From an uncultured Gammaproteobacteria bacterium (GTDB lineage Bacteria; Patescibacteriota; Microgenomatia; UBA8517): a stretch of 64,000 nt of DNA. The stretch is taken from the NCBI GenBank assembly GCA_964610395.1, contig CAZSXP010000001.1:63342-127341 (forward strand). Direction: 5' to 3'. Below the pieces are notes generated by a model. It was not told the DNA's origin. It did no database searches and worked only from the letters and a program-made list of their open reading frames with translations. Made by a program: the position numbers and the translations under genes. Shown piece by piece: positions 3,552-64,000 of this stretch (positions are counted from its first letter, which is position 1; every line of letters begins with the position of its first letter).

Positions 3552-4417
3552 ATAAGCTCAATGATACGATCGATTCCAAAAGAAAAACCAACTGCAGGAA
3601 TTTGACGTCCAGCAAACATGCCAATTAAATTATCATATCTTCCGCCACCACCAACTGACAAGTCTTGCGGCATTCCATTTAATTTCATTTCAAAAACGGT
3701 CGAAGTATAATAATCAAGGCCTCTTGCTAAAGTTGGATCAAAAAAGAAATCAACATCTTTTTTTAACTTATAATCGCTTTCTAAAATTTTAAATATTTCC
3801 AATAATCTTGGAGTGGGTGTAGATTTAGCAATAAAGTCTAAAAGACTTTGCGGCATATTTTCTTTGCCAATTTTATACATTTTGTCTATTAATCTTATTT
3901 CATCAATTGAAAGATCTTTAAAATTTTCTCTGTCATTTATAGCAAGGCGTGCCTTGTTGAAGTTCATTGCACGCATACCTTCAATACTTGCTGCAATTAC
4001 TTTTGCGTCGTCGTTTACACTTTCACTTCCAACAATGTCACAATCAAATTGTGTGAATTCTCTCGATCTTCCTTTTTGAGGCTTTTCTCCTCTAAAGACT
4101 TGGCCGATTTGGTATCTTGCAAATGTTGGATTTAATAATCCTAAGTTGTTAGAAACAAATCTTGCCAAGGGAACGGTTAAATCATAACGAAGAGCAAGTT
4201 TTCTTCCACCTCTATCTTCAAAGGTGTAAATTAACTTTTCATCTTCACCATATTTACCAAGTAAAGTTTCTGCAAATTCAATTGTTGGAGTTTCAAGAGG
4301 AGTAAAGTCAAATTTTTCAAGAACAACAGCAATCTTATTAACAAACATCCGGCGTTTTGAAGCCACATCTGGCATCATATCTTGAAAACCTTTAGGTGTT
4401 ACTGGCCCTTTTTGCAT
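3548..4417 (-). CDS. Histidyl-tRNA synthetase-like class II catalytic core (HisZ/HisRS-like), no anticodon-binding domain
   Basis: Motif 2-like 'YQIGQVFRGEKPQKGRSREFTQFDCDIVG', motif 3 'GGGRYDNLIGMFAG...PAVGFSFGIDRI'; ends right after the core at 289 aa. Confidence 0.7.
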   Translation of the reverse strand: MQKGPVTPKGFQDMMPDVASKRRMFVNKIAVVLEKFDFTPLETPTIEFAETLLGKYGEDEKLIYTFEDRGGRKLALRYDLTVPLARFVSNNLGLLNPTFARYQIGQVFRGEKPQKGRSREFTQFDCDIVGSESVNDDAKVIAASIEGMRAMNFNKARLAINDRENFKDLSIDEIRLIDKMYKIGKENMPQSLLDFIAKSTPTPRLLEIFKILESDYKLKKDVDFFFDPTLARGLDYYTSTVFEMKLNGMPQDLSVGGGGRYDNLIGMFAGRQIPAVGFSFGIDRIIELI

Positions 4418-4445
4418 ATATAATTATAATATCATATATTGAATC

Positions 4446-5330
4446 TCATTCTACAGGAGTTAAGATACTTCGTAAAGAAAAGACACCATTTTCATTTGTT
4501 CCAACTATATATATTTCTTGTCCAACTTCTAATTCTTTAATATTTGGACCCTTCCATTTCTTTGGTAATTTAATTTCGTTGATATAACTTTTTGATAATT
4601 TAACAATTTCAATTTTTTCTATCTTTACATTGTTTTCAACTAAAGGGTTTGCAATTAATATTCTTTTAGCAAGTAATACTTTGTTTCCATTAACAAATCC
4701 CATTGCTACAATGTAGTCACCAATTGCAATATCTGTAGATTTAACTTCAGCATTCTTTTTCAAGGTGTTAATATAACTTGTTTCCTCTGCAGTTGACATT
4801 TGTGCAATGTCACCTTTAGCTGTTTTTATTTGAATTGTATTAGAAGAAATATCTGTAACTGTACCAACATATGATGTTGTTTTTAATTTTTCATCTGTTT
4901 TAATGTATTTTCCAAATTCAGTTGAATATACAAGTATTATTTTTTCGACTGCATTGTTAACTGGATCATTTATACTAACTTCAGAAATTCCAGCAGGTAA
5001 ATTTACTTCCATTTCAAATGATCCATCATCATTTGATTTGCCAAAAAAGTCTTCATCGGAAGTGGAGATAATAAGATCGGTGCGTGGTTTTGTTAATCCA
5101 GCAATTTTAACTTGTAGACTAGATATAATATCATAGTCATATAGATTACTAATTGTTAATGAAACTTGATTTTTAGGGGGTGTATCTTTTTTAATATCAA
5201 TAACCTCAGCGTTTTTTTGAATTGCTTTAGTAACTCTCCAAGCTCCAAAAGCAACAATAAGACCAATTGATATACCTGCAATTATTGCAAAGATTATTTC
5301 TTTTCTCATGCAGTGGCTATTAAACCTCAA
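4446..5330 (-). CDS. Hypothetical membrane-anchored, probably extracytoplasmic, protein
   Basis: N-terminal TM ('IIFAIIAGISIGLIVAFGAW'); no recognisable motifs. Confidence 0.45.
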   Translation of the reverse strand: MRFNSHCMRKEIIFAIIAGISIGLIVAFGAWRVTKAIQKNAEVIDIKKDTPPKNQVSLTISNLYDYDIISSLQVKIAGLTKPRTDLIISTSDEDFFGKSNDDGSFEMEVNLPAGISEVSINDPVNNAVEKIILVYSTEFGKYIKTDEKLKTTSYVGTVTDISSNTIQIKTAKGDIAQMSTAEETSYINTLKKNAEVKSTDIAIGDYIVAMGFVNGNKVLLAKRILIANPLVENNVKIEKIEIVKLSKSYINEIKLPKKWKGPNIKELEVGQEIYIVGTNENGVFSLRSILTPVE

Positions 5331-5379
5331 AAACTACCATCTTGTCAAGTAAGACTTAAATAGTTAGAATGACAATACT

Positions 5380-5874
5380 ATGGAAATAGTATATAAAGAT
5401 AATCAATTTAAAATCAAAGGTAAGACAGGAATTCTTTATTCCAAAGCAAATGGAGTATTGATAGAGTCACCAGATGGCAATACTTCAAAGGAATTAAAAG
5501 GAGCTGGGGAATATGAAGTAAGTGGAATCTCAGTTATTGGTGTAAAAACTGAAGAGGGGACAATCTTCGTCTATGAAGTTGATGGATTTAGAATTTGTAA
5601 TTTAGATGGTATAACAAAAAAATTAATAGATAGTAAGTTGTCTCAGATTGGAGATGTTGATATCTTATTAGTTCCTGTTACTTCTGAATCAATTGAAATG
5701 ACCCAACAGCTTGAGAGCTATTACATTATTCCCCTCGGATACAAAAATGAAGAAGAACTTGATAAATTCTTAAAAGAAAGTGGATTAGTTGTTGAAAGAT
5801 TAAGTAAGTTTAGTATCAAAAAAGAAGAACTAATAGAGGACTCAACTGCCCAAATAATAGTACTAAATACTTAA
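5380..5874 (+). CDS. Hypothetical protein, stop/start coupled with dnaB
   Basis: 164-aa ORF ending TAAAATG into dnaB; no family recognised. Confidence 0.4.
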   Translation: MEIVYKDNQFKIKGKTGILYSKANGVLIESPDGNTSKELKGAGEYEVSGISVIGVKTEEGTIFVYEVDGFRICNLDGITKKLIDSKLSQIGDVDILLVPVTSESIEMTQQLESYYIIPLGYKNEEELDKFLKESGLVVERLSKFSIKKEELIEDSTAQIIVLNT

Positions 5875-5875
5875 A

Positions 5876-7198
5876 ATGGCAGATACAAATCAGGTTAGAG
5901 TACCACCACATTCGGTAGAAGCAGAGGAAAGTGTCCTTGGAGCTCTTTTGTTGGATAAAGATGCAGTAATAGCAGTTGCTGAATTTTTATCTCCAGAGGA
6001 TTTCTATGATGAACGCCACAAAGAAATTTATGAAGCAATATTATCTCTTTATGAAGAAAGAACTCCAGTTGATGTATTAACCGTCGCTACGCGCCTAAAA
6101 AAAACAAAAGCGTTAAAAAGAGTAGGTGGTGCGTCATACCTCACAGATATTGCAAATAAAGTCCCAACAGCAGCCCATGTTGAGCATTATGGGAAAATAG
6201 TTAAAGATCAATCAGTTAAAAGATCTTTAATGAAAGCTGCAACAAGATTAGTTGAATTTTCACTTGACGAAGGAATGTCATCAGCTGATTTATTAGATAA
6301 AGCTGAGTCAGAGGTTTTTTCACTTTCACAAAAGAATGTCAAAAAAGAATTTACTTCAGTTAGGGATACCTTAGCAGAAAGTTTTGACAGGCTTGATGAA
6401 CTTCATAAACAAGGAGAGGGTCTAAGAGGAATTGCCACAGGTTTTATTGATCTTGACAGTGCTACCGCAGGATTACAAAAGAGTAATTTAATAATACTTG
6501 CAGGAAGACCTGGTACAGGTAAATCAGCACTTGCAATGAATATTGCTCAATATGCTTCGGTTAAAAACAAAAAGAATGTTGGATATTTCTCACTTGAGAT
6601 GAGTAAGGAGGAATTAGTTGATAGACTTCTTGTTGATGTTGCTGACATAGACGCATGGAGACTTAAAACTGGAAAACTTGATGAAAATGATTTTACAAAA
6701 CTTAGCAAGGCGATGGGGATCTTGGCAGAAGCTTCGCTTTATATTGATGACACACCTGCACTATCAATTTTAGAAATGAGAACAAAAGCAAGAAGACTTC
6801 AAATTGAACATGGATTAGATTTATTAGTTGTTGATTATTTACAACTAGCAAGAAGTAGAAACCTAGAAAATAGAGTACAAGAAGTGGGAGAAATATCACA
6901 AGGCCTTAAAAATCTTGCTAGAGAACTGAAAGTTCCAGTTTTAGCACTTTCTCAGTTGTCAAGAGGTGTAGAGTCAAGAACTATCAAGAGACCTCAACTT
7001 TCTGACCTTCGTGAATCTGGGAGCATCGAACAGGATAGTGACGTTGTTATGTTTATTTGGCGCGAAGAAGATGATAATGTGGAAAATGTAATGCTTGATA
7101 TTGCAAAACATAGAAATGGACCACTTGCCTCTGTTCCATTATTCTTCAAAGGGGATAGAATTAAATTCTTCTCAAGAGACTCAAAACACAAAAAATAA
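5876..7198 (+). CDS. dnaB: Replicative DNA helicase DnaB
   Basis: Walker A 'GRPGTGKSALAMNIA', 'FSLEMS', 'ALSQLSR', N-terminal 'VPPHSVEAEESVLGALL'. Confidence 0.95.
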   Translation: MADTNQVRVPPHSVEAEESVLGALLLDKDAVIAVAEFLSPEDFYDERHKEIYEAILSLYEERTPVDVLTVATRLKKTKALKRVGGASYLTDIANKVPTAAHVEHYGKIVKDQSVKRSLMKAATRLVEFSLDEGMSSADLLDKAESEVFSLSQKNVKKEFTSVRDTLAESFDRLDELHKQGEGLRGIATGFIDLDSATAGLQKSNLIILAGRPGTGKSALAMNIAQYASVKNKKNVGYFSLEMSKEELVDRLLVDVADIDAWRLKTGKLDENDFTKLSKAMGILAEASLYIDDTPALSILEMRTKARRLQIEHGLDLLVVDYLQLARSRNLENRVQEVGEISQGLKNLARELKVPVLALSQLSRGVESRTIKRPQLSDLRESGSIEQDSDVVMFIWREEDDNVENVMLDIAKHRNGPLASVPLFFKGDRIKFFSRDSKHKK

Positions 7199-7204
7199 TT
7201 TTTG

Positions 7205-7288
7205 TGCCGGAGAGAAGATTCGGACTTCCATGACTTTTTAGGTCACACGATTTTGAGTCGTGCGTGTATACCATTCCACCACTCCGGC
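7205..7288 (-). tRNA. tRNA-Leu (anticodon CAA), type II with long variable arm
   Basis: Manual fold: acceptor GCCGGAG/CTCCGGC, D-stem GTG/CAC, anticodon stem CACGA/TCGTG with loop CTCAAAA, variable arm TGAC...GTCA, T-arm GGAAG-TCCGAAT-CTTCT, discriminator A; CCA not encoded. Confidence 0.75.
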
Positions 7289-7331
7289 AATTCTAGTATT
7301 ATACTATTTTTTAAGTTACAATAGCCACAGT

Positions 7332-7904
7332 ATGGCAAATGTTAATGCAACAGAATTAAGAAGTGGGACATCCTTTTTGTATGAAGGTAAACCATTTAAA
7401 GTTACAAAATATCAACTAATTAAAATGGGTAGGGGTGGTGCAACTGTACGTGTAAATTGTGTAAATCTTGAGACGTTTGCCAATGTCGAACATGCTTTTT
7501 CAAGTAATCTTTCTTTTGATTTAATTACTTTAAACAAAAAGAAATTTCAGTATCTATACAAAGATGCTAAAGTTGCCTATTTTATGAATACTGATACTTA
7601 TGAACAAATTGAAGTTCCACTAGCAATTTTAGGAAGCGATGTAAATTATATTAAAGAGGGAGGGGAATGCGATATCTTGTTTTGGGGAGAACGTGCCATG
7701 TCTGTTGATTTGCCTCCGAAGATAACATTAAAAGTAGTTGAATGTGACCCTGGTGTTAAAGGAAATACTGCTAGTAACTATTTAAAATCTGCCACAATGG
7801 AAAATGGACTAACTGTTAAAGTTCCACTTTTTATTAAAGTAGGAGAAATGATAAGAGTAGATACAAGATCAGGTGATTATGTAGAGCGCGCCAAGAATGA
7901 CTAA
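7332..7904 (+). CDS. efp: Elongation factor P
   Basis: 'LRSGTSFLYEGKPFKVTKYQLIKMGRGGATVRV...' aligns to EF-P over its full length; true ATG at 7332, the track ORF starts upstream in the tRNA region. Confidence 0.9.
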   Translation: MANVNATELRSGTSFLYEGKPFKVTKYQLIKMGRGGATVRVNCVNLETFANVEHAFSSNLSFDLITLNKKKFQYLYKDAKVAYFMNTDTYEQIEVPLAILGSDVNYIKEGGECDILFWGERAMSVDLPPKITLKVVECDPGVKGNTASNYLKSATMENGLTVKVPLFIKVGEMIRVDTRSGDYVERAKND

Positions 7905-8306
7905 TATTTGTGTTAAAAGTCCCCAATAAATGTTTGCATCGGATTGAATTGATTTTTGAAAACTAATCCATTTTTTGACAAATTCATTTTTCCACCCAAG
8001 CAAAAAATATGGACCCTCAACAATATCGGGTAAAATAGATGCAAAGGAAGCCAGAAGTATGTTTATATTGCCTTTTGATACAAAAGCAGTTAATACTGCT
8101 GCACAGGCTAGGTCTAATCCGATAATTAATAAAGTTTTGTTTGTTAAATATCCATATTTTTTTGTTTCAGTATTTAGATGGGGATTCCAATGAGGGGTCA
8201 TGTCAAGAACAAAATGACTAGCAAAAGCTAGTGGAATTGAGATAAGAGGATTGGGGACTGCAACGGCAATTGCAATACCTAAGGCTACGTGTGGAGTTTC
8301 TAACAT
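7869..8306 (-). CDS. Membrane protein, possibly DUF457/YdjM-like metal-dependent hydrolase
   Basis: Small polytopic protein with His-containing motifs ('SHFVLDMTPHWNPH'). Confidence 0.4.
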   Translation of the reverse strand: MLETPHVALGIAIAVAVPNPLISIPLAFASHFVLDMTPHWNPHLNTETKKYGYLTNKTLLIIGLDLACAAVLTAFVSKGNINILLASFASILPDIVEGPYFLLGWKNEFVKKWISFQKSIQSDANIYWGLLTQILVILGALYIIT

Positions 8307-8329
8307 TAGATTATGATATTATATAGCTT

Positions 8330-8899
8330 ATGCTAATTGCAAATCTACTGGGCATTTTTGTATTCCTCTTTTCTTTATGGAAGAGATTAAAAGATGATTA
8401 TCATTATGAAAAAGTATTTAATTTAGCTGTATTTATTTTAATTGGATTATCACTTGGTTTTTTTACTAGTTTAAAAATTTTTAATAGTTATTGGTTTTGG
8501 TTAGAAATAATAGGTATTGCCTTAGGTTTTGCAATTGCTATAAAAAGTCAAAAAATTAAATTTATCGAATCATTTGAAGGATTAGTCATTGGTCTTTTAC
8601 CTTGGTTGGGATTTTATCATTTAGCAAATGCTATTTTAACTCATAATTTAATTTCATTTTTATATTTTTGGTTGACTGCAGTTTCTGTCTTTTTATTTTT
8701 CTTTTTGGATGCACAATACAAAAAATTTACATGGTATAAGTCAGGTAGAGTAGGGTTTTCAGGTATAGTAACACTTGCTATCTTTTTTGTGTTAAGAGCA
8801 GGGCTTTTTTATGCAAATATATTTGAAGTAGTTTTATCGTTAACTACATCTTTACTGCTTATTATATTGCTGTATAATCTATCAAGAAATAATGACTAA
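8330..8899 (+). CDS. Hypothetical integral membrane protein
   Basis: 189 aa, multiple TM segments. Confidence 0.4.
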   Translation: MLIANLLGIFVFLFSLWKRLKDDYHYEKVFNLAVFILIGLSLGFFTSLKIFNSYWFWLEIIGIALGFAIAIKSQKIKFIESFEGLVIGLLPWLGFYHLANAILTHNLISFLYFWLTAVSVFLFFFLDAQYKKFTWYKSGRVGFSGIVTLAIFFVLRAGLFYANIFEVVLSLTTSLLLIILLYNLSRNND

Positions 8900-9260
8900 A
8901 ATTTTATTCCCAAAAGACCTTCTTAAACCTGTTGGAGATTTCTTAATGTCTAGCTTAAAAGCATTAAAAATTAGTAAAAAAAATATTTCCTCAGAAGATC
9001 CATTTAATGACAAATCAAGAGATTTAAAATATGCTTCTCCTGATACTGAAGCAGAGGAACAATTTGGGCATGCTAGAGTATCTGCAATCAAAGAAGAATT
9101 AAATCAAAAATCAAAACAAATTAAAAAAGCATTAGAAAGAGTTAGAATTGGTAAATATGGTATTTGTGAGGAATGTGGAAAAATGATTAATACAGATAGA
9201 CTTGCAGTTTTCCCCGAAGCTACAAAATGTATTAAATGTGAGAAAAAGAGAGAGAAATGA
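8892..9260 (+). CDS. DksA/TraR-family C4 zinc-finger protein
   Basis: C-terminal 'CEECGKMINTDRLAVFPEATKCIKCE' zinc finger. Confidence 0.75.
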   Translation: MTKILFPKDLLKPVGDFLMSSLKALKISKKNISSEDPFNDKSRDLKYASPDTEAEEQFGHARVSAIKEELNQKSKQIKKALERVRIGKYGICEECGKMINTDRLAVFPEATKCIKCEKKREK

Positions 9261-32211: not shown

Positions 32212-32388
32212 TTGAAATTAATAAACAAAAATAGAGATTTGAGAGACGCAAAACCAATGATGGAAACCAAAAGTATCAAAATGGAAACATCAGATTGCGA
32301 TACTGCATGTACAAGCGATTGTGCACAAAGTTGTGGATGTGAATCAGATTGTGCAGCAAGCTGTGGTTGCGAAGGGTCAAACGAATAA
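32212..32388 (+). CDS. Cys-rich RiPP precursor peptide (MKLINKNRDLRDAKPMMETKSIKME | TSDCDTACTSDCAQSCGCESDCAASCGCEGSNE)
   Basis: Strong SD AAGGAGGTGA 8 nt before TTG; leader plus core with 8 Cys in repeated SDC/SCGCE motifs; immediately upstream of YcaO. Confidence 0.6.
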   Translation: MKLINKNRDLRDAKPMMETKSIKMETSDCDTACTSDCAQSCGCESDCAASCGCEGSNE

Positions 32389-32396
32389 TACAAAAA

Positions 32397-33743
32397 GTGA
32401 AACTAAATCTATATAGCGAAAGCGAACAAGATATAGATAAGACTTTGTTGTCTTTGTCTTTGCTTGTTAATAAAGACTACGGATTAATTAAGAAAATTAA
32501 ACGTGTACGTCAGTATTATGATGAACCTAAGTTTTGGTATTATTCTGCTGATGTAAACGACTCATATTTAAAGAATGACGGTAGACACTTTCATTCAAAA
32601 TCTTCAGGTGCTTCACTCTATTCGCAAAAGGAAGCCTTATTAAAGTGTTTGTGTGAATTAATGGAGAGATACTGCAATTTCTATTTTAAAAAAGAATCAA
32701 TTGTTACGACTAAATCAATTGATAATATGACTAATAAATTTATTGATCCTAGATCTATGTCAGCTTTTTCCAAGACTCAACTTGAAAAAAATGAATTTAA
32801 AAAATTTAGAATTAACAATAATTCAGTTTTTAGATGGACAAATTGCATTTCACTTTTAGATAATAATGAAGAATATCTAATACCTTCACAATCTATATAT
32901 CTTTCATATCCATATTTAAAAGCTGAACCATCTATTTATTCAGCAATTAGTACTGGTGTAGCAGGTGGAGCAAATCTCTCGGCTGCTATTGTTCGAGGAA
33001 TTTGTGAAGTAATCGAGCGTGATGCATTCATGATTTTTTATCTTAATAAACTTACAGCCTCAAGAATTGATCTTAAGAATATTAATAATCCGGATATTAA
33101 AAATACAATGTCAATTTTAGATAGATATAAATTTGAAGTAGTTGTTCTTGATATTACAACCGATGTTAATGTCCCTACTGTTGCATCGATTATTGTAAAT
33201 CGATCTGGAATCGGTAAAGCTGTATCTGTGGGGTTAAAATGTGACTTTGATATAATCAAAGCAATTACAGGTTCTATTGAAGAAGCACTCCATACTCGGT
33301 CATGGCTTAGATCAAGTTTTGAAGATGAGCCAATTAAAGTTAATCCTCAGGACTTGCAGAAAAGTTCAGATATTAAATTAAGGGGTTTTTTGTGGTACGA
33401 AGCAGAAGCAATTAAAAATATTGATTATTGGATTAAAAATGCAAAGATAAAAGACATTAATTATTCTAGTAAACCGATGAAATCTGGTGAAAAGTTAAAA
33501 AGACTAACTAAAATATTTAGCGATAAAAATTATGAACTATACTATAAAGACATAACCATAAGCGAATTTAAAAAACTTAATTACTATATCGTAAAAGTAA
33601 TTATTCCAAAGATGCAACCAATTTATCTTAATGAAAAATATCCACTATTAGGAAGCGATAGACTGTATAGTGTTCCTGCTAAATTAGGATTTAAAAATAA
33701 ATTAGAGGATGATTTAAATAAATACCCACATCCATTTTTATAG
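32397..33743 (+). CDS. YcaO-domain cyclodehydratase (TOMM 'D' protein)
   Basis: 'HSKSSGASLYSQKEALLKCLCELMERYC' (GxGxT...A..SA..E..ER signature); C-terminal Pro-rich 'KYPHPFL'; start uncertain (GTG 32397; the track ORF begins at TTG 32349 inside the precursor). Confidence 0.8.
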   Translation: MKLNLYSESEQDIDKTLLSLSLLVNKDYGLIKKIKRVRQYYDEPKFWYYSADVNDSYLKNDGRHFHSKSSGASLYSQKEALLKCLCELMERYCNFYFKKESIVTTKSIDNMTNKFIDPRSMSAFSKTQLEKNEFKKFRINNNSVFRWTNCISLLDNNEEYLIPSQSIYLSYPYLKAEPSIYSAISTGVAGGANLSAAIVRGICEVIERDAFMIFYLNKLTASRIDLKNINNPDIKNTMSILDRYKFEVVVLDITTDVNVPTVASIIVNRSGIGKAVSVGLKCDFDIIKAITGSIEEALHTRSWLRSSFEDEPIKVNPQDLQKSSDIKLRGFLWYEAEAIKNIDYWIKNAKIKDINYSSKPMKSGEKLKRLTKIFSDKNYELYYKDITISEFKKLNYYIVKVIIPKMQPIYLNEKYPLLGSDRLYSVPAKLGFKNKLEDDLNKYPHPFL

Positions 33744-33746
33744 AAC

Positions 33747-34523
33747 ATGATAAAAATAAACAATAAAATTGAAAATTTAATTGAATCTGTTGATGAGTTA
33801 TCTAATTCACGAAAATTTCATATATCTACAAATATTGATGATTTTAGAGCGTTTAAGAAAACTCCTCGAGGGTCATGGCCATTAGAATGGAAAAAAGTGT
33901 ATCACAAAGCATATCCTAGGTTTGATCAATTGATTCTACCTACCCCAACAGCAATTAAAATAGATCTTGAAAAAACAATTTTGGAAAGAGAATCATTCAG
34001 AAATTTTACAAACAATAACATAAATCTTAATAAGTTTTCTGATCTTATTTATTATTCTGCTGGGATAAAAGACTCTAATAAAGGTGGTGAAAAAAGAAAT
34101 TATCCATCAGGCGGAGCTAGATATCCATTAGAAGTATATCCAATAGTTTTCAATGTAGATAAAATAAAAAAGGGTATATATCATTATCATGTTAAAACTC
34201 ATTCACTTGAGTGTATATTAGAAAATATTTCAAAAGAAGAAGTTATAAGTCAATTTGATCAACTTTGGATTAAAAAGTCAGCATTGTTATTTATTATTAC
34301 AGCTGTATTTGACAGAACTGAAGTTAAGTATAAAGACAGAGGTTATAGACATATTTTGACAGAGTATGGACATGTAGCTCAAAATCTATATTTAATGGGG
34401 ACTGGATTAGGACTTGGGGTTTGCTCGATTGGTGGATTTAATGACAAAGGAATTAACAAACTACTTGATATCGATGGTCTTGATGAATCTGTCGTGGGAG
34501 TGGTGGCAGTTGGTACAAAATGA
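33747..34523 (+). CDS. SagB-type FMN-dependent dehydrogenase (TOMM 'B' protein, nitroreductase fold)
   Basis: Hallmark 'NYPSGGARYPLEVYPIV'; C-terminal nitroreductase-like region. Confidence 0.8.
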   Translation: MIKINNKIENLIESVDELSNSRKFHISTNIDDFRAFKKTPRGSWPLEWKKVYHKAYPRFDQLILPTPTAIKIDLEKTILERESFRNFTNNNINLNKFSDLIYYSAGIKDSNKGGEKRNYPSGGARYPLEVYPIVFNVDKIKKGIYHYHVKTHSLECILENISKEEVISQFDQLWIKKSALLFIITAVFDRTEVKYKDRGYRHILTEYGHVAQNLYLMGTGLGLGVCSIGGFNDKGINKLLDIDGLDESVVGVVAVGTK

Positions 34524-34546
34524 AAATAGGATGATATACTTCTAAT

Positions 34547-35200
34547 ATGTTTATATTTTTAATTAGACACGCAGAAGGATCAGGTTCAAGAGAAAAATGG
34601 CAAACTCCAGATACTCCACTTAGTGATACAGGGGCAAAACAATCTGAAAACTTAACCACTCTGTCTCGGTTCAAAAAAGTGGATTTAATTCTATCTAGTA
34701 AATGGAAAAGAGCTTTAGAAACGGCAAAAATAGTTTCAAAATTACTTGATAAAAAACTTCTAGAAACTGACGGAATTCAAGAACGTGAGCAACATTCGGA
34801 AATTTATGGTGCTGATAGGCAAAGTGATATAAGTAAGCGCTATAACGATGAGAATATTAAAAATTACAATGATCTTGACTGGAAATTTGAAAATAAGGAA
34901 GAATCAATAAGAGAAGTTTCAGAACGTGCATTTAATTTCAAAAACAGTTTAACATCTAACTATCTAAATAAAAGTATCGTAGTTGTGTCTCATGAAATGT
35001 TTATTAGATGTTTTATTACAAATATTCTATTAGGCGAGAATTATGAAGACAAAGTTTTTAATAAAATTTATAGATCGTTACAACTTATGAATACTGGAGT
35101 GTCGCTGTTGGAGTTTAATGAAAATAGAAAAACTTGGAAAGTATGGTATATAAATGACTTCGCACATTTGGGAAGAATAAAAACGAAAATAAGCAAGTAA
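34547..35200 (+). CDS. Histidine phosphatase superfamily (PGM-like branch) protein
   Basis: N-terminal 'FIFLIRHAEGSG' RHG catalytic motif, 'VVVSHEMFIR'. Confidence 0.65.
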   Translation: MFIFLIRHAEGSGSREKWQTPDTPLSDTGAKQSENLTTLSRFKKVDLILSSKWKRALETAKIVSKLLDKKLLETDGIQEREQHSEIYGADRQSDISKRYNDENIKNYNDLDWKFENKEESIREVSERAFNFKNSLTSNYLNKSIVVVSHEMFIRCFITNILLGENYEDKVFNKIYRSLQLMNTGVSLLEFNENRKTWKVWYINDFAHLGRIKTKISK

Positions 35201-35201
35201 A

Positions 35202-36125
35202 TTAATAATCTTTCCATAACCTTTCACTGTTTATAAATCTCAATACTTTTTTATGAGTTTCTCTGGCTCTTTCAAGGTATCTGGATTTTATGTTTTGTAG
35301 ATAGTCAATTGCCCGAGTAGAAATAAACAATATATAAAATGTCATAACTGATTTTTCAGTATCAGTTAGATCATTTGAATCTAAGTAACCATTAAGAAAT
35401 GCATCAAAATTTTTATTAACTCGATCTGATTTTATTAGATGATACAGATAGTAAGAAACATCGTTTAGTTGAGTCTCTTCCTTCCAATTCCCAAAATCTA
35501 ATAATTTCAATCTATTATCTGTTTTTACGATAGCTTGTCCGTCGTGTATATCATTATGGTTAAAAACTGGAATAGCATTTCCACAATAATTAAGCATCGT
35601 ATCTGAAAGTTTGTTAAGGATAACTTGAGTTTCACTATTTGATTGAAGTTCATTTAATGGGCTACCTAAATATTTACGTAATAATTCTGAATAATATGAA
35701 AAATCAGTTTTACCACTTGAGCTCCATCCAGTTCCTGAAACTGGTACTTTGTCGTGCATGTCTCTAGTTATTTTACCTAAGTCAATTCTTAATCTTGCAT
35801 TGTTACTGGTATATAGTAATTCCCCTTCAATCTTTTCAGAAATAAGCAACTTTTCACCATCTTTATTTTTGGCTAAAGCGTAAGGCTTAGGTACAGATAG
35901 TCCTGCTCCGTATGTCATATTTAATCCCTTCCATTCTCGTTGGGTGCTACCGCTATTAGTAGAAATTTTAATTGCCACTTCAGTTCTAGATTCAGATGTT
36001 GCGTAAAGGATAGAGTTGCCAGTGAATGGTGCAATTTCTTTTTTATGAACATTTAATATGACTTGAGGCACAGAAAACTCTGTATTCCTACTTTCAATTG
36101 GAAAATATGTAATTCTTTCTGACAT
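35202..36125 (-). CDS. APH/choline-kinase-like phosphotransferase
   Basis: Catalytic loop 'HNDIHDGQAIV' (HxDxxxxN) and 'LLDFGNW' (DFG-like); likely start MSERITYF (36125), since the track ORF start falls inside direct repeat 2. Confidence 0.6.
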   Translation of the reverse strand: MSERITYFPIESRNTEFSVPQVILNVHKKEIAPFTGNSILYATSESRTEVAIKISTNSGSTQREWKGLNMTYGAGLSVPKPYALAKNKDGEKLLISEKIEGELLYTSNNARLRIDLGKITRDMHDKVPVSGTGWSSSGKTDFSYYSELLRKYLGSPLNELQSNSETQVILNKLSDTMLNYCGNAIPVFNHNDIHDGQAIVKTDNRLKLLDFGNWKEETQLNDVSYYLYHLIKSDRVNKNFDAFLNGYLDSNDLTDTEKSVMTFYILFISTRAIDYLQNIKSRYLERARETHKKVLRFINSERLWKDY

Positions 36126-36172
36126 CTTATAAATTATGCGTATTGTACGCTTAAACAAGCTATTTTTACAAA

Positions 36173-36404
36173 TTTTATTCTTTCTCAAATGATTGCTGTT
36201 GGTGAAGAAACTGGAAAAATGGAAGAGGTTCTAAAAAAAGTAAGTCATGTTTTTGAAGTTGAGTCAGACCAAAAAGTTAAAACATTAACTGCAGCAATTG
36301 AACCAATTGTCATGGTTCTTTTGGGGTTAGGAGTTGGATTTTTAGTAATTGCAATTATCCTGCCTATTTACAACTTGACGAGTCAATTTTAAGTACTTGA
36401 CAAG
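36173..36404. repeat. 232-bp direct repeat, copy 2 (includes the 67-aa pilC 3'-fragment ORF 36189..36392); right boundary of the island
   Basis: The ORF-track protein at 36189..36392 is identical to the PilC C-terminus; the TTGACA at its end serves as the -35 for pilA. Confidence 0.9.
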
Positions 36405-36437: not shown

Positions 36438-37037
36438 ATGAAATTTAATAAAGGTTTTACATTAGTTGAGTTATTAATAGTTATTGGTCTTCTTGGCGCT
36501 ATCGCCTTAATAGTCATCTCAGCAATTAATCCTATCGAGCAAAGTAACCGTGCAAGAGACACTAAATATAAAGCTGATGCAGGTCAACTTATTGGAGCAA
36601 TAGATAGGTACTTTGTAACTCAAGATGAATTTCCTTGGACTACTTTTGATTCAGTCACTTATCCATCGGCTGACACTGCAATTTCATTTGGTTCTGCTAC
36701 TCTTGAAATGTATGGGCTATGTGGTGCCACTTGCACAGTTGATGGTTTGTTAATTGGTAATAATGAGTTAAAAACTGAATTTAGATCACGAGACTTTGTT
36801 AAAGGTACACCAACTGTTCCAAATCAAATTTGGATTGGTAAAGAACTTGGCTCTTCTGAATCAACTTATGCCTGTTTTGTTCCTCTATCTAAATCAATTA
36901 GAGATAAAGCTTGTAATGATGGAAAGGTCTATACATTATCTGGAAGTACTAGAACAGTTGTCAGTGGAGCCACTTGTTTAGGTACAGCAGCAGGCTGGTC
37001 TGCTTCTCCTTACATGTATGTATGTCTACCTGAGTAG
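36438..37037 (+). CDS. pilA: Type IV pilin (major pilin candidate)
   Basis: Prepilin N-terminus 'MKFNKGFTLVELLIVIGLLGAIA' (G/FTLxE), paired Cys near the C-terminus. Confidence 0.8.
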   Translation: MKFNKGFTLVELLIVIGLLGAIALIVISAINPIEQSNRARDTKYKADAGQLIGAIDRYFVTQDEFPWTTFDSVTYPSADTAISFGSATLEMYGLCGATCTVDGLLIGNNELKTEFRSRDFVKGTPTVPNQIWIGKELGSSESTYACFVPLSKSIRDKACNDGKVYTLSGSTRTVVSGATCLGTAAGWSASPYMYVCLPE

Positions 37038-37710
37038 TATATTTCTTCTTGGTTTAATAATCGGTTCATTTATTTCTGCTATAACTTATAGAATTCCTCG
37101 CGAACTTCAGTTCGTAAAAGGCAGGTCCTTTTGTGATTCATGTAAAAAAGAGTTAACTTGGTATGACAATATTCCCTTATTTTCATTTTTGTACTACAAA
37201 GGAAAATCAAGATGTTGTAATCAAAAAATATCTATTCGCTATCTTTTAATAGAATTATCTTCAGCTTTAGGTGCCGTTTTGTTGTTTGTTTTACTTCCAT
37301 CTACATTTCTTATTTCTTATTTCTTATTTCTTATTTGCCTTGCTATTTTTGTCATAGATTTAGAACATCAAATTATACCCGACGAATTATCATGGTTTAT
37401 ATTGTTATTAGGATTAATTAATTTTAGTTTTGTGAATATATTTGCAGGGTTTTTCTTTTCTTTATTACTTTTGACCTTATATCTTATAACTGGTGGTCGT
37501 GGAATGGGTCTAGGAGACGTTAAACTGGCAATTCCCCTCGGTCTATGGCTTGGGTTAGAGAAAGGCGTTGTTTGGTTAACAACGTCTTTCATAATAGGTG
37601 GAATAGTCGCTTCCATACTGCTATTATTAAAAAGAGCTAAGTTAAAAACAAAAATTGCCTTCGGACCATTTTTAATTTTTGCTTTTTGGGTAGTGCTTTT
37701 AACAATATGA
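37018..37710 (+). CDS. pilD: Prepilin peptidase PilD (A24 family)
   Basis: N-terminal zinc tetracysteine 'CDSCKKELTWYDNIPLFSF...CCNQKIS', about 6 TM. Confidence 0.8.
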   Translation: MYVYLSSIFLLGLIIGSFISAITYRIPRELQFVKGRSFCDSCKKELTWYDNIPLFSFLYYKGKSRCCNQKISIRYLLIELSSALGAVLLFVLLPSTFLISYFLFLICLAIFVIDLEHQIIPDELSWFILLLGLINFSFVNIFAGFFFSLLLLTLYLITGGRGMGLGDVKLAIPLGLWLGLEKGVVWLTTSFIIGGIVASILLLLKRAKLKTKIAFGPFLIFAFWVVLLTI

Positions 37711-60211: not shown

Positions 60212-61306
60212 ATGACAAAATTGTATTTTTACAACAATAATTGGGAGTTTTTTGAAAAGAATAACAAATATTATTTTTTTGACGTAGTTACAACAAAACT
60301 TCTCGAACTTGTAATAAAGGAGAAAGAGGAAAAAGTAGCTCTTTTATTTCTTATAAGGGAAGCTTCAAAGCCATCTGAAAAAGAAAACTTAATTTTTAAG
60401 CTCCATAAGAATTTCCCAAAAATAAATATAGATTGGATAAACACTACGTTCAATAATTTATCGAAGGTAGGAGTTCTTAAGGTTGCACTCTCGACTCCAC
60501 AAGAGTTCAAAGGTAGGTATGTTTTGGGTCTTGAGCGTCAATTAGAATTTCTCAATGAAGTTTTTCCAGAACAAGGCAAGTTTAAAATGCAAAAAAAACT
60601 TAAGGATGCAAAAATAACAGTTATTGGGCTGGGTATAGTAGGCCAATCAGTTCTTGTTCCTCTTCTTGCTTCAGGAATAGGCAATTTAACATGCATTGAC
60701 TTTGACACAGTTGAAGAAAGAAACATAGGTAGACAAATTCTCTTTCGCAGAGGTGATAACGGAAAACCAAAAACAGAAGTAATTAAACGATTTATTGTTG
60801 AGAATTATTCGGCAGTTAAGATTAAGACAATAAATAAAAAACTAGACAATGTAAGAAGTATCAAAGCCGCCATAAATGGATCTGATATTGTCATACAATG
60901 TTGTGATTTCCCTCGATATATTATTCACAGACTTATTAACAAAGCGTGTCTTGATCTGAAAATACCCAATCTTCTTCTTGGGTCCTACAGGGCAGGACCT
61001 TTTTGTTTGCCTCACAAAACAGCTTGTTATGGTTGTCTTGAAACTTTACTTAGAGAAAATATGCCTATTTACGATGAAGTTGTTGAAAGGATTTTCAGTC
61101 AAGGAACAAGAAGATTTCCACAACTTATTATAACATCACTTCTTACTGGTGCGCTTGGAGCTAAGGAAATTATAACTTTCTTACTTGACTTACCCACCCA
61201 GACAATCGACGGGTGTCTTCATTTCAATCCTAGAACATTGGAGGTAACCAGAGAACCAATACCAAGACAAAAGAATTGTTATGCTTGTTCCTCTAATGCA
61301 AAATAA
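60212..61306 (+). CDS. E1-like (ThiF/MoeB/MccB-like) enzyme with ~130-aa N-terminal putative peptide-binding domain
   Basis: 'VIGLGIVGQSV' GxGxxG, 'DFDTVEERNIGRQ', C-terminal CxxC...CxxC ('CYGC','CYAC'); start at internal ATG (MTKLYF). Confidence 0.75.
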   Translation: MTKLYFYNNNWEFFEKNNKYYFFDVVTTKLLELVIKEKEEKVALLFLIREASKPSEKENLIFKLHKNFPKINIDWINTTFNNLSKVGVLKVALSTPQEFKGRYVLGLERQLEFLNEVFPEQGKFKMQKKLKDAKITVIGLGIVGQSVLVPLLASGIGNLTCIDFDTVEERNIGRQILFRRGDNGKPKTEVIKRFIVENYSAVKIKTINKKLDNVRSIKAAINGSDIVIQCCDFPRYIIHRLINKACLDLKIPNLLLGSYRAGPFCLPHKTACYGCLETLLRENMPIYDEVVERIFSQGTRRFPQLIITSLLTGALGAKEIITFLLDLPTQTIDGCLHFNPRTLEVTREPIPRQKNCYACSSNAK

Positions 61307-62522
61307 TCAAAAGATTCGGCTTATCGTACAACCCAGAGAAAACAACAGAAGCTATCTGTACGATTATCATTCACACATTGAAATTAATGAAAAAGAACAT
61401 CCGTTCGGGAAAGGCGGAGGAATAGACTTGGATCTTAAAATAGCAAAACTAAAAGCGACCTGTGAAGCTATCGAAAGATATGCAGGAAGTGTGATCCCAG
61501 ATCAGACATATATAAAAAGTTCATACAACGAAATTAAAAGCGAGGCAATCAATCCAAAAAGACTAATCGATTTTGATTCTTTGCAATATACAGAAGCTTT
61601 TCCATTCTCTAGATTTCGGCCAAATACCAAAATTGATTGGGTAAAGGCGTTTTCGGTAACGAAAAATAGGAATGTGTTAATTCCTGCTTCTGCAATTTTT
61701 CTCGGATATAATGCAATAATACCTAAAAAATTACGGTTATTTCCAACAACATCAAACGGTCTTGCTTTGGGGACTTCTGGAAAAGATGCTTTTAGAAGAG
61801 GTTTGTATGAATTAATTGAAAGGGATGCCGCTTTGACACTTTGGTATACACAGAGAATTCCCATTCGCGTTAATCTTGATTCGTTATCTAATTCAGACTT
61901 TCATTTTATTAAAAATAAAATCATAGATGAAGGTTTGATTCTCGAAGTTTGTATTTCCACTTTCGACATTCCAATCCCTTCCACAATCGCAATAATTAGA
62001 GATATAAAAGGATATCCTGCTTTTAGTGTTGGATTGGGATGTGATAATAATTTAGAGAAGGCTGTTTTTAAAGCAACAATGGAAGCTTTAATGGTAAGAA
62101 ATACACTTGAATTATTACCTAAAGATATGCGGGTAAATATTAAAATTAAAAGAAGAAGTGTAAAGAATTTTATGGATCATGCTCTGTATTATTCCACTCT
62201 GTCAAAAGAGAAAGTAATAAGAAAACTTTACTCTGGGAAAAAATTGACCATAGCTAAAATTAATTCCAAATTCGGGTTAAGTGAAAAGTATTCTGATTTA
62301 GATACCCTGATTGCTTTGTTCACCAGAAAGAACATGGAGATAATAAAATATGATTTAACCACCCCAATAATAAGTGATATGGGTTATTCGGTAGTAAAAA
62401 CAATAGTTCCTGAATTGCAACAAATGGATATTAGCTACGAAGCAAGATTCCTGAGAAGTAATAGGTTAACTGGTTTAGTTTCTTCTAAAAAAATAAATCC
62501 ATACCCACACCCGTTCGGGTGA
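61296..62522 (+). CDS. YcaO-domain protein (second copy)
   Basis: 'FGKGGGIDLDLKIAKLKATCEAIERYAG' signature; C-terminal 'NPYPHPFG' PxPxP motif. Confidence 0.8.
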   Translation: MQNNQKIRLIVQPRENNRSYLYDYHSHIEINEKEHPFGKGGGIDLDLKIAKLKATCEAIERYAGSVIPDQTYIKSSYNEIKSEAINPKRLIDFDSLQYTEAFPFSRFRPNTKIDWVKAFSVTKNRNVLIPASAIFLGYNAIIPKKLRLFPTTSNGLALGTSGKDAFRRGLYELIERDAALTLWYTQRIPIRVNLDSLSNSDFHFIKNKIIDEGLILEVCISTFDIPIPSTIAIIRDIKGYPAFSVGLGCDNNLEKAVFKATMEALMVRNTLELLPKDMRVNIKIKRRSVKNFMDHALYYSTLSKEKVIRKLYSGKKLTIAKINSKFGLSEKYSDLDTLIALFTRKNMEIIKYDLTTPIISDMGYSVVKTIVPELQQMDISYEARFLRSNRLTGLVSSKKINPYPHPFG

Positions 62523-62548
62523 ACATCAATTTCAGTAGTAAGATAAAT

Positions 62549-62758
62549 TTAATTTCCAAATCGTCCCCTAACAGCTCTACCTTCTGTCTTGGTAACAATA
62601 TTTGTTTTTGTTAGATCTACTTCATCTAACAAATTTTCTGGTTTTTCAGCTTGAGAATCGAGAATAAAATTAGTGACACCAGTTGCTTCACAAGCAGATA
62701 ATCCTGCAGCAACACCTAAAGCTGTTGAAACTAAAACTTTATATGCTTCTTTTCTCAT
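62549..62758 (-). CDS. Small lipoprotein (69 aa)
   Basis: 'MRKEAYKVLVSTALGVAAGLSAC' signal with lipobox; shares promoter and N-terminal similarity with 50944..52458. Confidence 0.5.
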   Translation of the reverse strand: MRKEAYKVLVSTALGVAAGLSACEATGVTNFILDSQAEKPENLLDEVDLTKTNIVTKTEGRAVRGRFGN

Positions 62759-62779
62759 ATTATGTTTATCCTCTAATGT

Positions 62780-62826
62780 TACAGGATACTTCCCTGTTTG
62801 TCAACTATAGGCCACTATAGTCATTG
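62780..62826 (-). promoter_or_regulatory. Conserved promoter module, copy B
   Basis: TTGACA-17 nt-TAACAT then AGAGGA SD before the ATG at 62758; identical core to copy A. Confidence 0.55.
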
Positions 62827-62827
62827 T

Positions 62828-64000
62828 TTAGATTAAATCTCCAGTAATAATAGTTATTGGAGAAATTGAAACTATTTCGTCAATCATCTTATTTAAATCA
62901 TCTGAGGATACAGATAGCATTTCTTCTCTTATTTTATCTGCATCAATAATCTCACCATACATTTTTAATCCATGAGTGACCCAATCAAGTCTATCTTGAA
63001 CACTAAAAGGGGTAGCCAATTGTCTTTTATGCTCAAGCTCAACTGCATTTTTGGTAATTGTTTTAATTGAACTCAAAATTTCAGTAATTCCAGAATCCAA
63101 ATTCTTATTGTTATCTTTTTTAACATCAACTCTTAAATTAAGTATGGCTATGTTATCCGTTGGTCTTGCTATACCCACCTCTGTAAAATAACCCCAACCA
63201 TTTTTTCTCGAATAATTAAAAAGCTCTGTGGATATTATGTTTTTTAAGTATTTAAGTGAGAAATATTTTTTTGATCCAAATTTGTGTTTAAATAACCAGT
63301 TGAACTGATTAGTAATTATTCCATTCTTTATATTGGTATCAAACTTGTAATTATTTTCAACTTCTAATTCTGGATTTGTTTTCTCTAATAATTCAGTATC
63401 AATAATATTTTTTGGTTTATCAATCCTTGGAAAATCTAAATATTGATCTTTTAGTTTATCAATTAAATTTTTAAGTATTGAACGATCCCCTTCTGTGTAT
63501 ACACTTATTAAAAGATTTTTTGGTATTAAAATATTCTCTTGTATCTTTTTTAATTGGCTTATTGTAATTTTGTCTAAATCTTCTACTGATCCAGCAGTTG
63601 TTGATATGTCAGAAAATGGGTTTTTAGTATCGTAAATAGTTTTGCAGAAATTATTATCGATGTGATAATTATGATTTGTTGATCGACCTTGAATTTCTGA
63701 CTTAATGATATTTCTTTCGGTTTCAATATCCTTCACAACATCATCCAAATTGTTAAGTGGTGCCTCAAGTGACTTTCTTATTCCATCTAAAACTACCCAT
63801 AGTCCATAATCTACTACATTTGGATTTGCGATTCCTGAGATAGTTTCACGAGTTTCTTGTTTATTAGTTTGAGCAATTAATTTAAGTGAATTACGCTCAG
63901 CTAATAATCTTATCCTTTTATTGAAAAAATGTTCTAAAAAATGCACAGAGCCAGCAGGATTTCCATACGCACCTTCAGAAAATTCCCAATAAATTCTTGC
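62828..64000 (-). CDS. M16-family zinc peptidase, 5'-truncated by the window edge (GTG at 63946 is not the true start)
   Basis: 'GSVHFLEHFF' inverted zincin HxxEH; the reading frame stays open to the window end. Confidence 0.7.
   Translation of the reverse strand, partial: ARIYWEFSEGAYGNPAGSVHFLEHFFNKRIRLLAERNSLKLIAQTNKQETRETISGIANPNVVDYGLWVVLDGIRKSLEAPLNNLDDVVKDIETERNIIKSEIQGRSTNHNYHIDNNFCKTIYDTKNPFSDISTTAGSVEDLDKITISQLKKIQENILIPKNLLISVYTEGDRSILKNLIDKLKDQYLDFPRIDKPKNIIDTELLEKTNPELEVENNYKFDTNIKNGIITNQFNWLFKHKFGSKKYFSLKYLKNIISTELFNYSRKNGWGYFTEVGIARPTDNIAILNLRVDVKKDNNKNLDSGITEILSSIKTITKNAVELEHKRQLATPFSVQDRLDWVTHGLKMYGEIIDADKIREEMLSVSSDDLNKMIDEIVSISPITIITGDLI

Follow-up and report, generated by a model that had tools for sequence, protein, structure and literature searches.

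An inserted five-gene cassette in a type IV pilus locus

The subject of this analysis is a pair of adjacent genes that encode a histidine phosphatase (HP) and a phosphotransferase of the aminoglycoside phosphotransferase (APH)/choline-kinase fold, found in a stretch of 64,000 nucleotides (called the window throughout; GC content 33%) of contig CAZSXP010000001.1, positions 63,342 to 127,341, from a Patescibacteriota genome. We found that the intact kinase and phosphatase are co-inherited with a putative azole-forming YcaO/SagB system and a Ser/Cys-rich acidic precursor, the genes of a pathway to a peptide that the ribosome makes and that is modified after translation (RiPP). The surrounding region is a type IV pilus locus and the pair is inserted between pilC and the first pilin gene (Table 1). 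The insert is sharply bounded and contains exactly five genes, those of the precursor, YcaO, SagB, HP and the kinase. The last two are convergent, with stop codons one base apart. A first-pass annotation, made by a model from the sequence, had described two convergent open reading frames (ORFs) here as the last two genes of an island, with the motifs RHAEG, HNDIHDGQ and DFGNW, and coordinates, motifs and layout all proved correct.

The boundaries of the insert are set by two direct repeats of 232 bp each, which have only three mismatches (at 32056, 32089 and 32101). The one at the third of these positions replaces the stop codon TAG by TAA, and the other two are silent. The amino acid sequence of the ORF in the right repeat is 100% identical to pilC residues 335-401 and covers positions 67-125 of the 125 positions of the T2SSF profile. 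The GC content of the insert is 30.2%, that of its flanks 34.5% and 32.6%. Promoter-like sites for both directions of transcription fall within the insert; these sites are consensus matches only, and their regional count is no higher than in shuffled sequences. As the repeats bracket exactly five genes and the promoter-like sites lie inside them, HP and the kinase are part of one inserted unit. No integrase is found in the gene content of the 4,059-bp insert. At the left junction (32099-32122) the pilC end ACTTGACAAGTCAATTTTAG is directly followed by the near-copy GTACTTGACAAGCCAATTTTAA (compare 36390-36404). The boundary between repeat and insert falls inside this junction motif of about 20 bp, which could be the core site of a recombination.

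Table 1 Coordinates of the genes and other features of the window (aa, amino acids)
Feature	Coordinates	Strand	Remarks
pilB	28055-29809		
pilT	29829-30890		
pilC	30896-32101		intact
Left direct repeat	31882..32113	+	last 218 bp of pilC plus 12 bp downstream
Inserted cassette	32114..36172		five genes; 4,059 bp of unique sequence between the direct repeats
Promoter-like site TTGACT-16-TATAGT with TG extension	32140..32167	+	upstream of the precursor gene; 10/12 consensus positions
Shine-Dalgarno sequence AAGGAGGTGA	32197-32206	+	strong/perfect; ahead of the precursor gene
Precursor peptide gene	32212..32388	+	58 aa, TTG start; leader motif RDLRDAKP; core SDCDTACTSDCAQSCGCESDCAASCGCEGSNE
YcaO cyclodehydratase, SagD type	32397..33743	+	448 aa from GTG; mechanical ORF starts at 32349
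SagB-type flavin mononucleotide (FMN) dehydrogenase	33747..34523	+	258 aa
Histidine phosphatase (HP), branch 1	34547..35200	+	217 aa; PF00300 96.9 bits
APH/choline-kinase-fold phosphotransferase	35202..36125	-	307 aa; signature HxD[LIV]H[DEN]xQ
Promoter-like site TTGTAA-18-TACAAT	36142..36171	-	upstream of the kinase, within the insert; 9/12 consensus positions
Right direct repeat	36173..36404	+	remnant copy of the pilC 3' end
ORF in right repeat	36189-36392		67 aa
Pilin	36438-37037		
Prepilin peptidase	37018-37710		further pseudopilins also present
S66 (MccF-like) LD-carboxypeptidase	57904-59052		second YcaO locus
Methyltransferase	59049-59816		second YcaO locus
ThiF/E1-like protein	60182-61306		second YcaO locus; overlaps YcaO
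YcaO	61281-62522		second YcaO locus
M16_C-like protein	62828-63946	-	second YcaO locus

Identity of the phosphatase and the kinase

Assignment of the first protein to the phosphoglycerate mutase branch of the histidine phosphatases, as originally proposed, is supported by its Pfam His_Phos_1 match (E 1.5e-27), by the invariance of R7 and H8 (of the RHAEG motif), R55, E79 and H149 across 9-12 homologues and by the HP-type folds recovered with Foldseek. Its AlphaFold2 model has a pLDDT (predicted local distance difference test) of 92.4. The best Foldseek matches were phosphoserine phosphatases of the HP type and a riboflavin-pathway HP (template modelling (TM) score 0.78-0.82), the top structural match being the riboflavin-pathway enzyme; CobC and PhoE are also among the best solved relatives. 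In sequence-profile searches of the PDB the best matches were again HP-type phosphoserine phosphatases (E 2e-15). No signal peptide, hydrophobic segment or membrane segment was seen in the HP sequence, in which the catalytic RH pair already stands at residues 7-8, and the protein is predicted to be cytoplasmic.

The start codon of the kinase is the ATG at 36125, since the database protein P0001 is 307 residues long and 100% identical, and homologues have 296-310 residues. The assignment to the aminoglycoside/choline-kinase fold also stood: the protein scores 26.8 bits against Pfam APH (PF01636; cut-off 23.2), and its AlphaFold2 model (pLDDT 92.7) retrieved the amicoumacin kinase AmiN, YtaA/CotI, homoserine kinase and APH(9) as best Foldseek matches. 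AmiN is the best solved match (profile E 5e-5, Foldseek E 2e-10), at an identity of 16-18%. The bilobal kinase fold of the modelled protein is certain, yet uninformative on the class of substrate. Residues K53, E64, H190, D192, H194, G196, Q197, D210 and F211 are invariant in 18 homologues (34-80% identity to the window protein), and the motifs HNDIHDGQ and DFGNW are present. Hence, the protein-kinase-like catalytic set is complete except that the metal-binding Asn of HxDxxxxN is replaced by Gln (Q197) in all YcaO-linked members. Neither a signal peptide nor a membrane segment was found in the kinase. The net charge of the enzymes was no guide to their role, since proteins of this AT-rich genome are mostly basic.

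A word-indexed search of 5.8 billion proteins gave 20-24 kinase clusters, and exhaustive HMMER searching of 1.84 billion representatives gave 58 kinases at E <= 1e-30. The HMMER scores run from 447 down to about 100 bits and are then followed by generic APH matches near 57 bits, a distribution that points to a small, discrete family. The signature HxD[LIV]H[DEN]xQ is confined to members scoring above about 185 bits, and below that score the relatives show the canonical Asn.

The insert encodes putative azole-forming enzymes and their precursor

The YcaO protein scored 281.2 bits against TIGR03604 (cut-off 219.25) and 189 bits against PF02624, and its homologues are 447-451 residues long. SagB scored 163.7 bits against TIGR03605 (cut-off 78.4) and 79 bits against PF00881. 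Precursor homologues adjoin YcaO in the other loci, and the alignment of those from loci with the gene order of the window (architecture A, below) showed that the leader motif R-[DE]-x-x-[DE]-A-x-P is conserved and that two Ser-Cys dipeptides hardly vary. The cassette thus has the YcaO, the SagB and the adjacent Cys/Ser/Thr-rich precursor that characterize azole-forming clusters of the thiazole/oxazole-modified microcin (TOMM) or linear azol(in)e-containing peptide (LAP) type.

The E1-like 'C' protein with its RiPP recognition element (RRE) is absent from the insert and from about 30 homologous cassettes, although the approximately 75 unassigned N-terminal residues of YcaO or SagB might harbour a cryptic RRE. 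In these loci (about 30) all of the cassette ORFs were assigned to YcaO, nitroreductase, His_Phos_1 or APH, and the PADLOC defence models gave no match for any of the four cassette enzymes.

The kinase and phosphatase accompany YcaO and SagB at unrelated sites

Eight close homologues of the kinase (36-60% identity) lie in neighbourhoods made up of a short ORF, YcaO, a nitroreductase/SagB, His_Phos_1 and the convergent kinase, with flanks that differ at every locus. Neighbourhoods were retrieved for nine homologues with the Gln signature, which share 30-60% identity with the kinase of the window; all nine adjoin YcaO-SagB, each with flanks of its own. A YcaO scan of 185,579 species genomes gave 79 loci. 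Wherever YcaO was at least 48% identical over its full length, HP and kinase were present, and most loci of lower identity had neither; at locus L021 the YcaO match (50%) covers part of the protein only, and neither HP nor kinase is visible at the contig end. About a dozen further cassettes were obtained by scanning metagenomes with a degenerate DNA pattern for PxFxHxDxH[DE]GQ. Candidatus Woesebacteria and other Patescibacteria metagenome-assembled genomes are the named sources of homologues of the genes treated here, which marks the host of the window as a bacterium of the candidate phyla radiation (CPR). The cassette is so far essentially restricted to genomes of the CPR/Patescibacteria type.

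Among the 32 distinct kinase loci in all of the fetched DNA, HP is adjacent in 29 and YcaO/SagB in 27. The gene set of the insert recurs, with other flanks, at no fewer than 27 further loci. Four of the five kinase loci without YcaO/SagB are on truncated contigs and one is real (L093, which has an Asn-type kinase). When the count is limited to loci flanked by 3.5 kb or more on each side (n = 12), HP is present in all and YcaO in 11, L093 being the exception; no Gln-type kinase without YcaO/SagB was found among loci with adequate flanks.

The genes occur in at least five arrangements. Architecture A is precursor-YcaO-SagB-HP with a convergent kinase, and architecture B (L042, L066) is YcaO-SagB-precursor-HP-kinase, in which the HP and kinase genes overlap. 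Architecture D (L094/L095, 17 contigs) is YcaO-SagB-HP-kinase with the precursor convergent downstream. HP is absent from architecture C, which has a divergent kinase, and from architecture E, which is YcaO-SagB-kinase (C and E are represented by L020 and L097). The association of the kinase with YcaO/SagB outlasts rearrangement over these architectures, as that of a functional module would, and the link of the pair to the peptide pathway is strongly supported. Two observations rule out that the pair is merely a passenger of the site between pilC and pilA: direct repeats mark the boundary of the insert, and the genes co-occur at unrelated sites. Gene order varies but the gene set persists. The tie to the RiPP island that had been suggested from the window also held at the pilC-pilin site, for which no relative was found that has both genes but lacks the YcaO cassette. 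The closest related genome (L014), whose pilB, pilT and pilC are 95-97% identical to those of the window, has the whole cassette, including the pair, at this same site.

The phosphatases of the different architectures are less coherent than the kinases. Those of architecture A are 41-48% identical among themselves and those of B and D 38-64%, whereas between A and B/D the HP scores (19-54 bits) are in the range found against unrelated HPs of the same contigs (16-58 bits). Kinases of the same architectures form one family (129-178 bits between A and B/D). The simplest reading that these scores suggest is that a house-keeping HP was recruited beside the kinase more than once, rapid divergence being the alternative, and more than one recruitment would argue for a genuine need for dephosphorylation. 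Within architecture A, the conservation of HP equals that of the biosynthetic enzymes.

Mobility of the cassette

At locus L019 the cassette is part of an island (4512-11771) composed of tRNA-Val, a tyrosine integrase (PF00589), a 581-residue protein without a Pfam match, the cassette and finally 50 bp that repeat the tRNA 3' end perfectly. In L008, L018 and L066 the cassette stands between direct repeats of 91-97 bp. Judged by such boundaries, the cassette is horizontally mobile between CPR genomes.

In L014 (segments 2810-7650 and 11761-11979) a second island of 4.8 kb lies ahead of the cassette at the pilC 3' end. Its genes encode a NUDIX and a GDPD protein, another APH/choline-kinase-like protein, an uncharacterised protein of 409 residues and a DIT1_PvcA-like protein. 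L014 has the pilC 3' end in triplicate, with a mosaic of similarity among the copies. Because of this extra island and the three mosaic copies, the pilC 3' end looks like a hot spot for the accumulation of islands. In two other loci (L005, 2376-7396; L013, 380-5130) the cassette adjoins genes for a 7TM_transglut protein and three RimK-like ATP-grasp proteins, a putative further peptide-modification system.

Presence of the pair tracks peptide chemistry

In CPR bacteria and some DPANN archaea there are sister cassettes with YcaO-SagB, and those sampled are mostly without kinase or HP. Most have an M16 peptidase gene right behind SagB, and one a DUF2268 protease. The minimal form, precursor-YcaO-SagB-M16, is common in these organisms (L021-L059), with basic Pro/Cys-rich cores (e.g., PCKPPGPPVPCRPPTCAPQPCKC) and leaders that have a DAKEF motif. 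The E1-like partner was absent from the kinase-less sister cassettes sampled as well; hence, azole formation would not need the kinase. Two proposed roles of the pair could be discarded from this comparison. The kinase is not a replacement for the E1-like/RRE partner, since kinase-less sisters lack that partner too and the leader motif [DE]-A-[KR] is common to both groups, and the pair is not an FMN supply for SagB, an idea prompted by the fold match of HP to the riboflavin-pathway enzyme, since the kinase-less sisters have the same SagB.

The precursor cores of the two groups differ. Kinase-linked cores have 63 Asp/Glu versus two Lys/Arg, contain 27% Ser/Thr and only three Pro in 490 core residues, and Ser/Thr precedes 45% of their Cys residues; the precursor of the distant architecture D is SEDSSSASASAGTCGTSDSCG. 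The cores of kinase-less sisters are basic and Pro-rich, with 12% Ser/Thr. These compositions, a suggestive rather than a statistical contrast, point to an accessory module whose presence tracks the chemistry of the peptide.

The window holds an M16 (insulinase-type) peptidase gene just upstream of pilB and outside the insert (26797-28212, minus strand). The encoded protein is 28% identical to the M16 peptidase of sister cassettes and could be a leader peptidase that works in trans, or a house-keeping enzyme. A second, unrelated YcaO locus is found at 57904-63946 of the window (Table 1), and it has an E1-like partner, unlike the cassette studied here.

Relation to characterised pathways

In class V lanthipeptide biosynthesis the APH-like kinase CaoK phosphorylates Ser/Thr of the precursor, a reaction that has been reconstituted in vitro (PMC9486802), and the same phosphorylation has been proposed for TsaC of a thioamitide pathway that contains YcaO/TfuA (PMC8153245). 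The cassettes resemble the CaoK/CaoY, LxmK/LxmY and TsaC/TsaD systems in having a stand-alone PF01636-type kinase beside a Ser/Thr/Cys-rich precursor, and resemble the thioamitide clusters also in having YcaO. However, they lack a lyase of the HopA1/OspF type (no cassette ORF gave a HopA1-type Pfam match), the partner of the kinase being a PF00300 HP instead, and they lack the LanC-like cyclase and the cysteine decarboxylase. Moreover, Gln replaces the catalytic-loop Asn of these kinases, and the hosts are CPR bacteria rather than actinobacteria or cyanobacteria.

Dehydrazole pathways combine azoles with dehydration of Ser via a proposed phospho-Ser, carried out by the LanM-like enzyme CcaM (PMC10676384). 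The cassettes are predicted to combine azoles with an ATP-dependent modification of Ser likewise. The dehydrazole target is the Ser directly before the azole, and in the cores studied here conservation is highest at the Ser-Cys dipeptides. Unlike the lipid-kinase-like LanM enzyme, the cassette kinase has the APH fold; an elimination domain is lacking and a phosphatase is present. The first-pass annotation held that phosphotransfer had not been reported in LAP pathways. This is right for LAPs in the narrow sense, but not for RiPPs at large, given CaoK, the proposal for TsaC and the dehydrazoles.

Compared with the LAP/TOMM systems of streptolysin S (SagBCD) and microcin B17 (McbBCD), the cassette shares a SagD-family YcaO and a SagB that score above curated cut-offs and an adjacent Cys/Ser/Thr-rich precursor. 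It differs in the absence of the E1-like/RRE 'C' protein, a protease, a transporter and an immunity gene, in place of which it has the kinase-phosphatase pair. The amicoumacin cluster likewise encodes a kinase together with a phosphatase (AmiN/AmiO; PMC6156654, PMC7314540), and amiN homologues are widespread outside that cluster (PMC6156654). However, AmiN is only 16-18% identical to the kinase, AmiO is an alkaline phosphatase, and amicoumacin is made by a non-ribosomal peptide synthetase-polyketide synthase route and is not a RiPP. Neither the extracytoplasmic re-activating phosphatase nor the stand-alone spread of a resistance kinase is encountered with the cassettes.

HP shares the catalytic core R-H, R, E, H with the metal-independent phosphoserine phosphatases of Hydrogenobacter (iPSP1/PspA) and Entamoeba (PSP) (TM about 0.8), at 23-26% identity and with only 62 bits against the NCBIfam PspA model (cut-off 350). 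The substrate of these enzymes is free phosphoserine, and CobC, PhoE and the riboflavin-pathway HP match about equally well. A literature search for YcaO together with histidine phosphatase gave no relevant report, and one for CPR, YcaO and RiPP gave general surveys only. In the searchable literature we found no description of an HP as the partner of a RiPP kinase or of an azole-RiPP cassette that includes an APH-type kinase and an HP.

A proposed write/erase function

The explanation that we favour, tentatively and at slightly under an even chance, is peptide-directed writing and erasing of phosphate: the kinase would phosphorylate Ser/Thr of the cassette peptide and HP would remove the phosphate. 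HP and the kinase would then be the accessory module of a self-contained, mobile five-gene cassette. YcaO and SagB would make thiazol(in)es from Cys residues in the core of the precursor, and the APH-fold kinase would most likely use ATP to O-phosphorylate Ser/Thr of the same peptide, the two near-invariant Ser residues directly before Cys being the best candidate sites. The cytoplasmic HP would most likely hydrolyse the phospho-Ser of the peptide. Phosphorylation would be transient or edited during maturation, and the two enzymes would be a write/erase pair that acts on different maturation states, not a resistance device. We infer the peptide as the substrate, together with the residues modified and the purpose of the phosphate. 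For this proposal count the physical unity of the insert, the co-occurrence that survives rearrangement, the apparently repeated recruitment of an HP, the accessory distribution of the pair and the core compositions, all described above. In addition, the best solved relatives of HP are phosphoserine phosphatases, and no Gln-type kinase was met with as an orphan, unlike resistance kinases of the AmiN type.

Several points weigh against the write/erase proposal. With both enzymes predicted to be cytoplasmic, their action on the same site would be futile unless they meet the peptide at different stages of its maturation, a hypothetical separation that the model requires. Replacement of the metal-binding Asn by Gln could alter or lower catalysis, and by fold and sequence the kinase is no nearer to RiPP kinases than to antibiotic and metabolite kinases (top matches APH(2''), APH(9), homoserine kinase and AmiN). 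HP is missing from the kinase-bearing lineages L020 and L097, and so is not strictly required, and its closest relative outside the cassettes (39% identity, L126) is an orphan among unrelated genes. The difference between the two kinds of core comes from a few lineages, not many independent events, and L059 is a counter-example, with an acidic Ser-rich core and no kinase within 8 kb. Finally, in L093 the nearest Asn-type relative of the kinase is divergent from an HP gene and accompanied by two proteins without Pfam matches (367 and 342 residues), with no YcaO nearby, so a non-RiPP substrate is possible for the ancestral pair. The pair of L093 lies at 5189-8915 (a further segment is 11619-14498), and a second APH gene, a NUDIX gene and a radical-SAM-like gene are found 5 kb away.

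An alternative that we regard as unlikely is that the phosphate serves as a leaving group, with phospho-Ser/Thr beside a thiazol(in)e being eliminated to dehydroalanine without LanM, LanB or HopA1. The peptide would then combine azoles with dehydroamino acids, as dehydrazoles do. The alpha-proton of a residue carried on C2 of a thiazoline is acidic, and elimination could be spontaneous or aided by HP, which would otherwise clear phosphates at sites that do not eliminate. [ST]-Cys dipeptides are abundant in the kinase-linked cores, in which the two Ser-Cys are near-invariant, and loss of HP with retention of the kinase (L020, L097) fits an editing role rather than an obligatory one. However, a lyase or cyclase gene is found in none of the approximately 30 cassettes, and we know of no histidine phosphatase that acts as a lyase. 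The normal chemistry of HP would reverse the work of the kinase, and in architecture A HP is conserved like the biosynthetic enzymes. The literature speaks on both sides: the characterised RiPP uses of APH-like or Ser/Thr-kinase-like enzymes all phosphorylate and then eliminate (PMC9486802, PMC8153245, PMC10676384), and the dehydrazole enzyme CcaM targets only Ser that precedes an azole (PMC10676384), but a HopA1-like protein accompanies 96% of the APH-like kinases in known RiPP systems (PMC8153245).

Phospho-caging is another explanation of low probability. The kinase would inactivate a mature toxic peptide in the producer for self-protection and the phosphatase would re-activate it, as in the case of AmiN/AmiO and the corramycin kinase ComG. 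AmiN, a self-resistance kinase, is the best match of the cassette kinase in both sequence and Foldseek searches, and AmiN/AmiO is a documented kinase/phosphatase pair within a biosynthetic cluster (PMC6156654). No other immunity gene or transporter is present in the cassette, and the kinase gene of the main architecture runs opposite to the other genes and has a promoter-like site of its own. However, HP starts directly at the catalytic strand, with neither signal peptide nor membrane segment; without an export signal re-activation would occur inside the producer, which weakens caging and prodrug schemes. The alkaline phosphatase AmiO is also unlike HP. Gln-type kinases are never orphans among adequately flanked loci, whereas amiN homologues are almost ubiquitous outside the cluster (PMC6156654). 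Sister cassettes lack an immunity gene too, so there is no sign that these peptides require one, and the kinase is co-linear with HP in architectures B and D, in B with overlapping genes. The phosphorylation cycle tied to the peptide product that the first-pass annotation had envisaged therefore fares unevenly. The link to the pathway is strong, but its prodrug form is weakened by the lack of a signal peptide on HP and of orphan Gln-type kinases, and its dehydration form is without a lyase gene.

It is least likely, indeed improbable, that the substrate is a small molecule (a hydroxy-amino acid, a sugar or a cofactor precursor), with the link to the cassette due to co-transfer or to supply of something other than the peptide. 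Such molecules are the usual substrates of most APH-fold enzymes and small branch-1 HPs, the top structural match of HP is a riboflavin-pathway phosphatase and SagB needs FMN, the nearest HP outside the cassettes is an orphan, and L093 provides the best argument; however, hitch-hiking is hard to square with a Gln-type kinase that stays almost obligately linked to YcaO-SagB through five or more gene orders and many sites of insertion, sisters with the same YcaO-SagB chemistry and FMN need have no pair, and the presence of the pair follows the composition of the precursor core.

Implications

The azole-type peptide family of these cassettes probably goes through a phosphorylation step. A more far-reaching version, which we put forward as a doubtful but attractive possibility, is that the kinase and HP constitute a new RiPP tailoring module. 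Its product would be either a phosphorylated azole peptide or a peptide in which phospho-Ser beside a thiazol(in)e is a self-eliminating intermediate, giving dehydroalanine without a lyase while the phosphatase proof-reads. Unrelated HPs would have entered such a module on two or more occasions, within a minimal five-gene cassette that circulates among CPR episymbionts.

The RiPP chemistry of CPR/Patescibacteria is essentially uncharacterised, and a self-contained cassette of five genes and about 4 kb is small enough for direct synthesis and expression. The kinase signature HxD[LIV]H[DEN]xQ combined with adjacent YcaO-SagB provides a simple genome-mining rule for the family. The insert bounded by direct repeats of pilC and the tRNA-Val integrase island of L019 show biosynthetic cassettes moving among reduced genomes. 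If the kinase acts on the peptide, APH-type kinases of RiPP pathways would no longer be confined to the logic of kinase plus lyase, and a phosphatase would become a dedicated RiPP partner. In that case an azole peptide would carry a phospho-mark that can be removed again, or dehydroamino acids would be formed by a new route.

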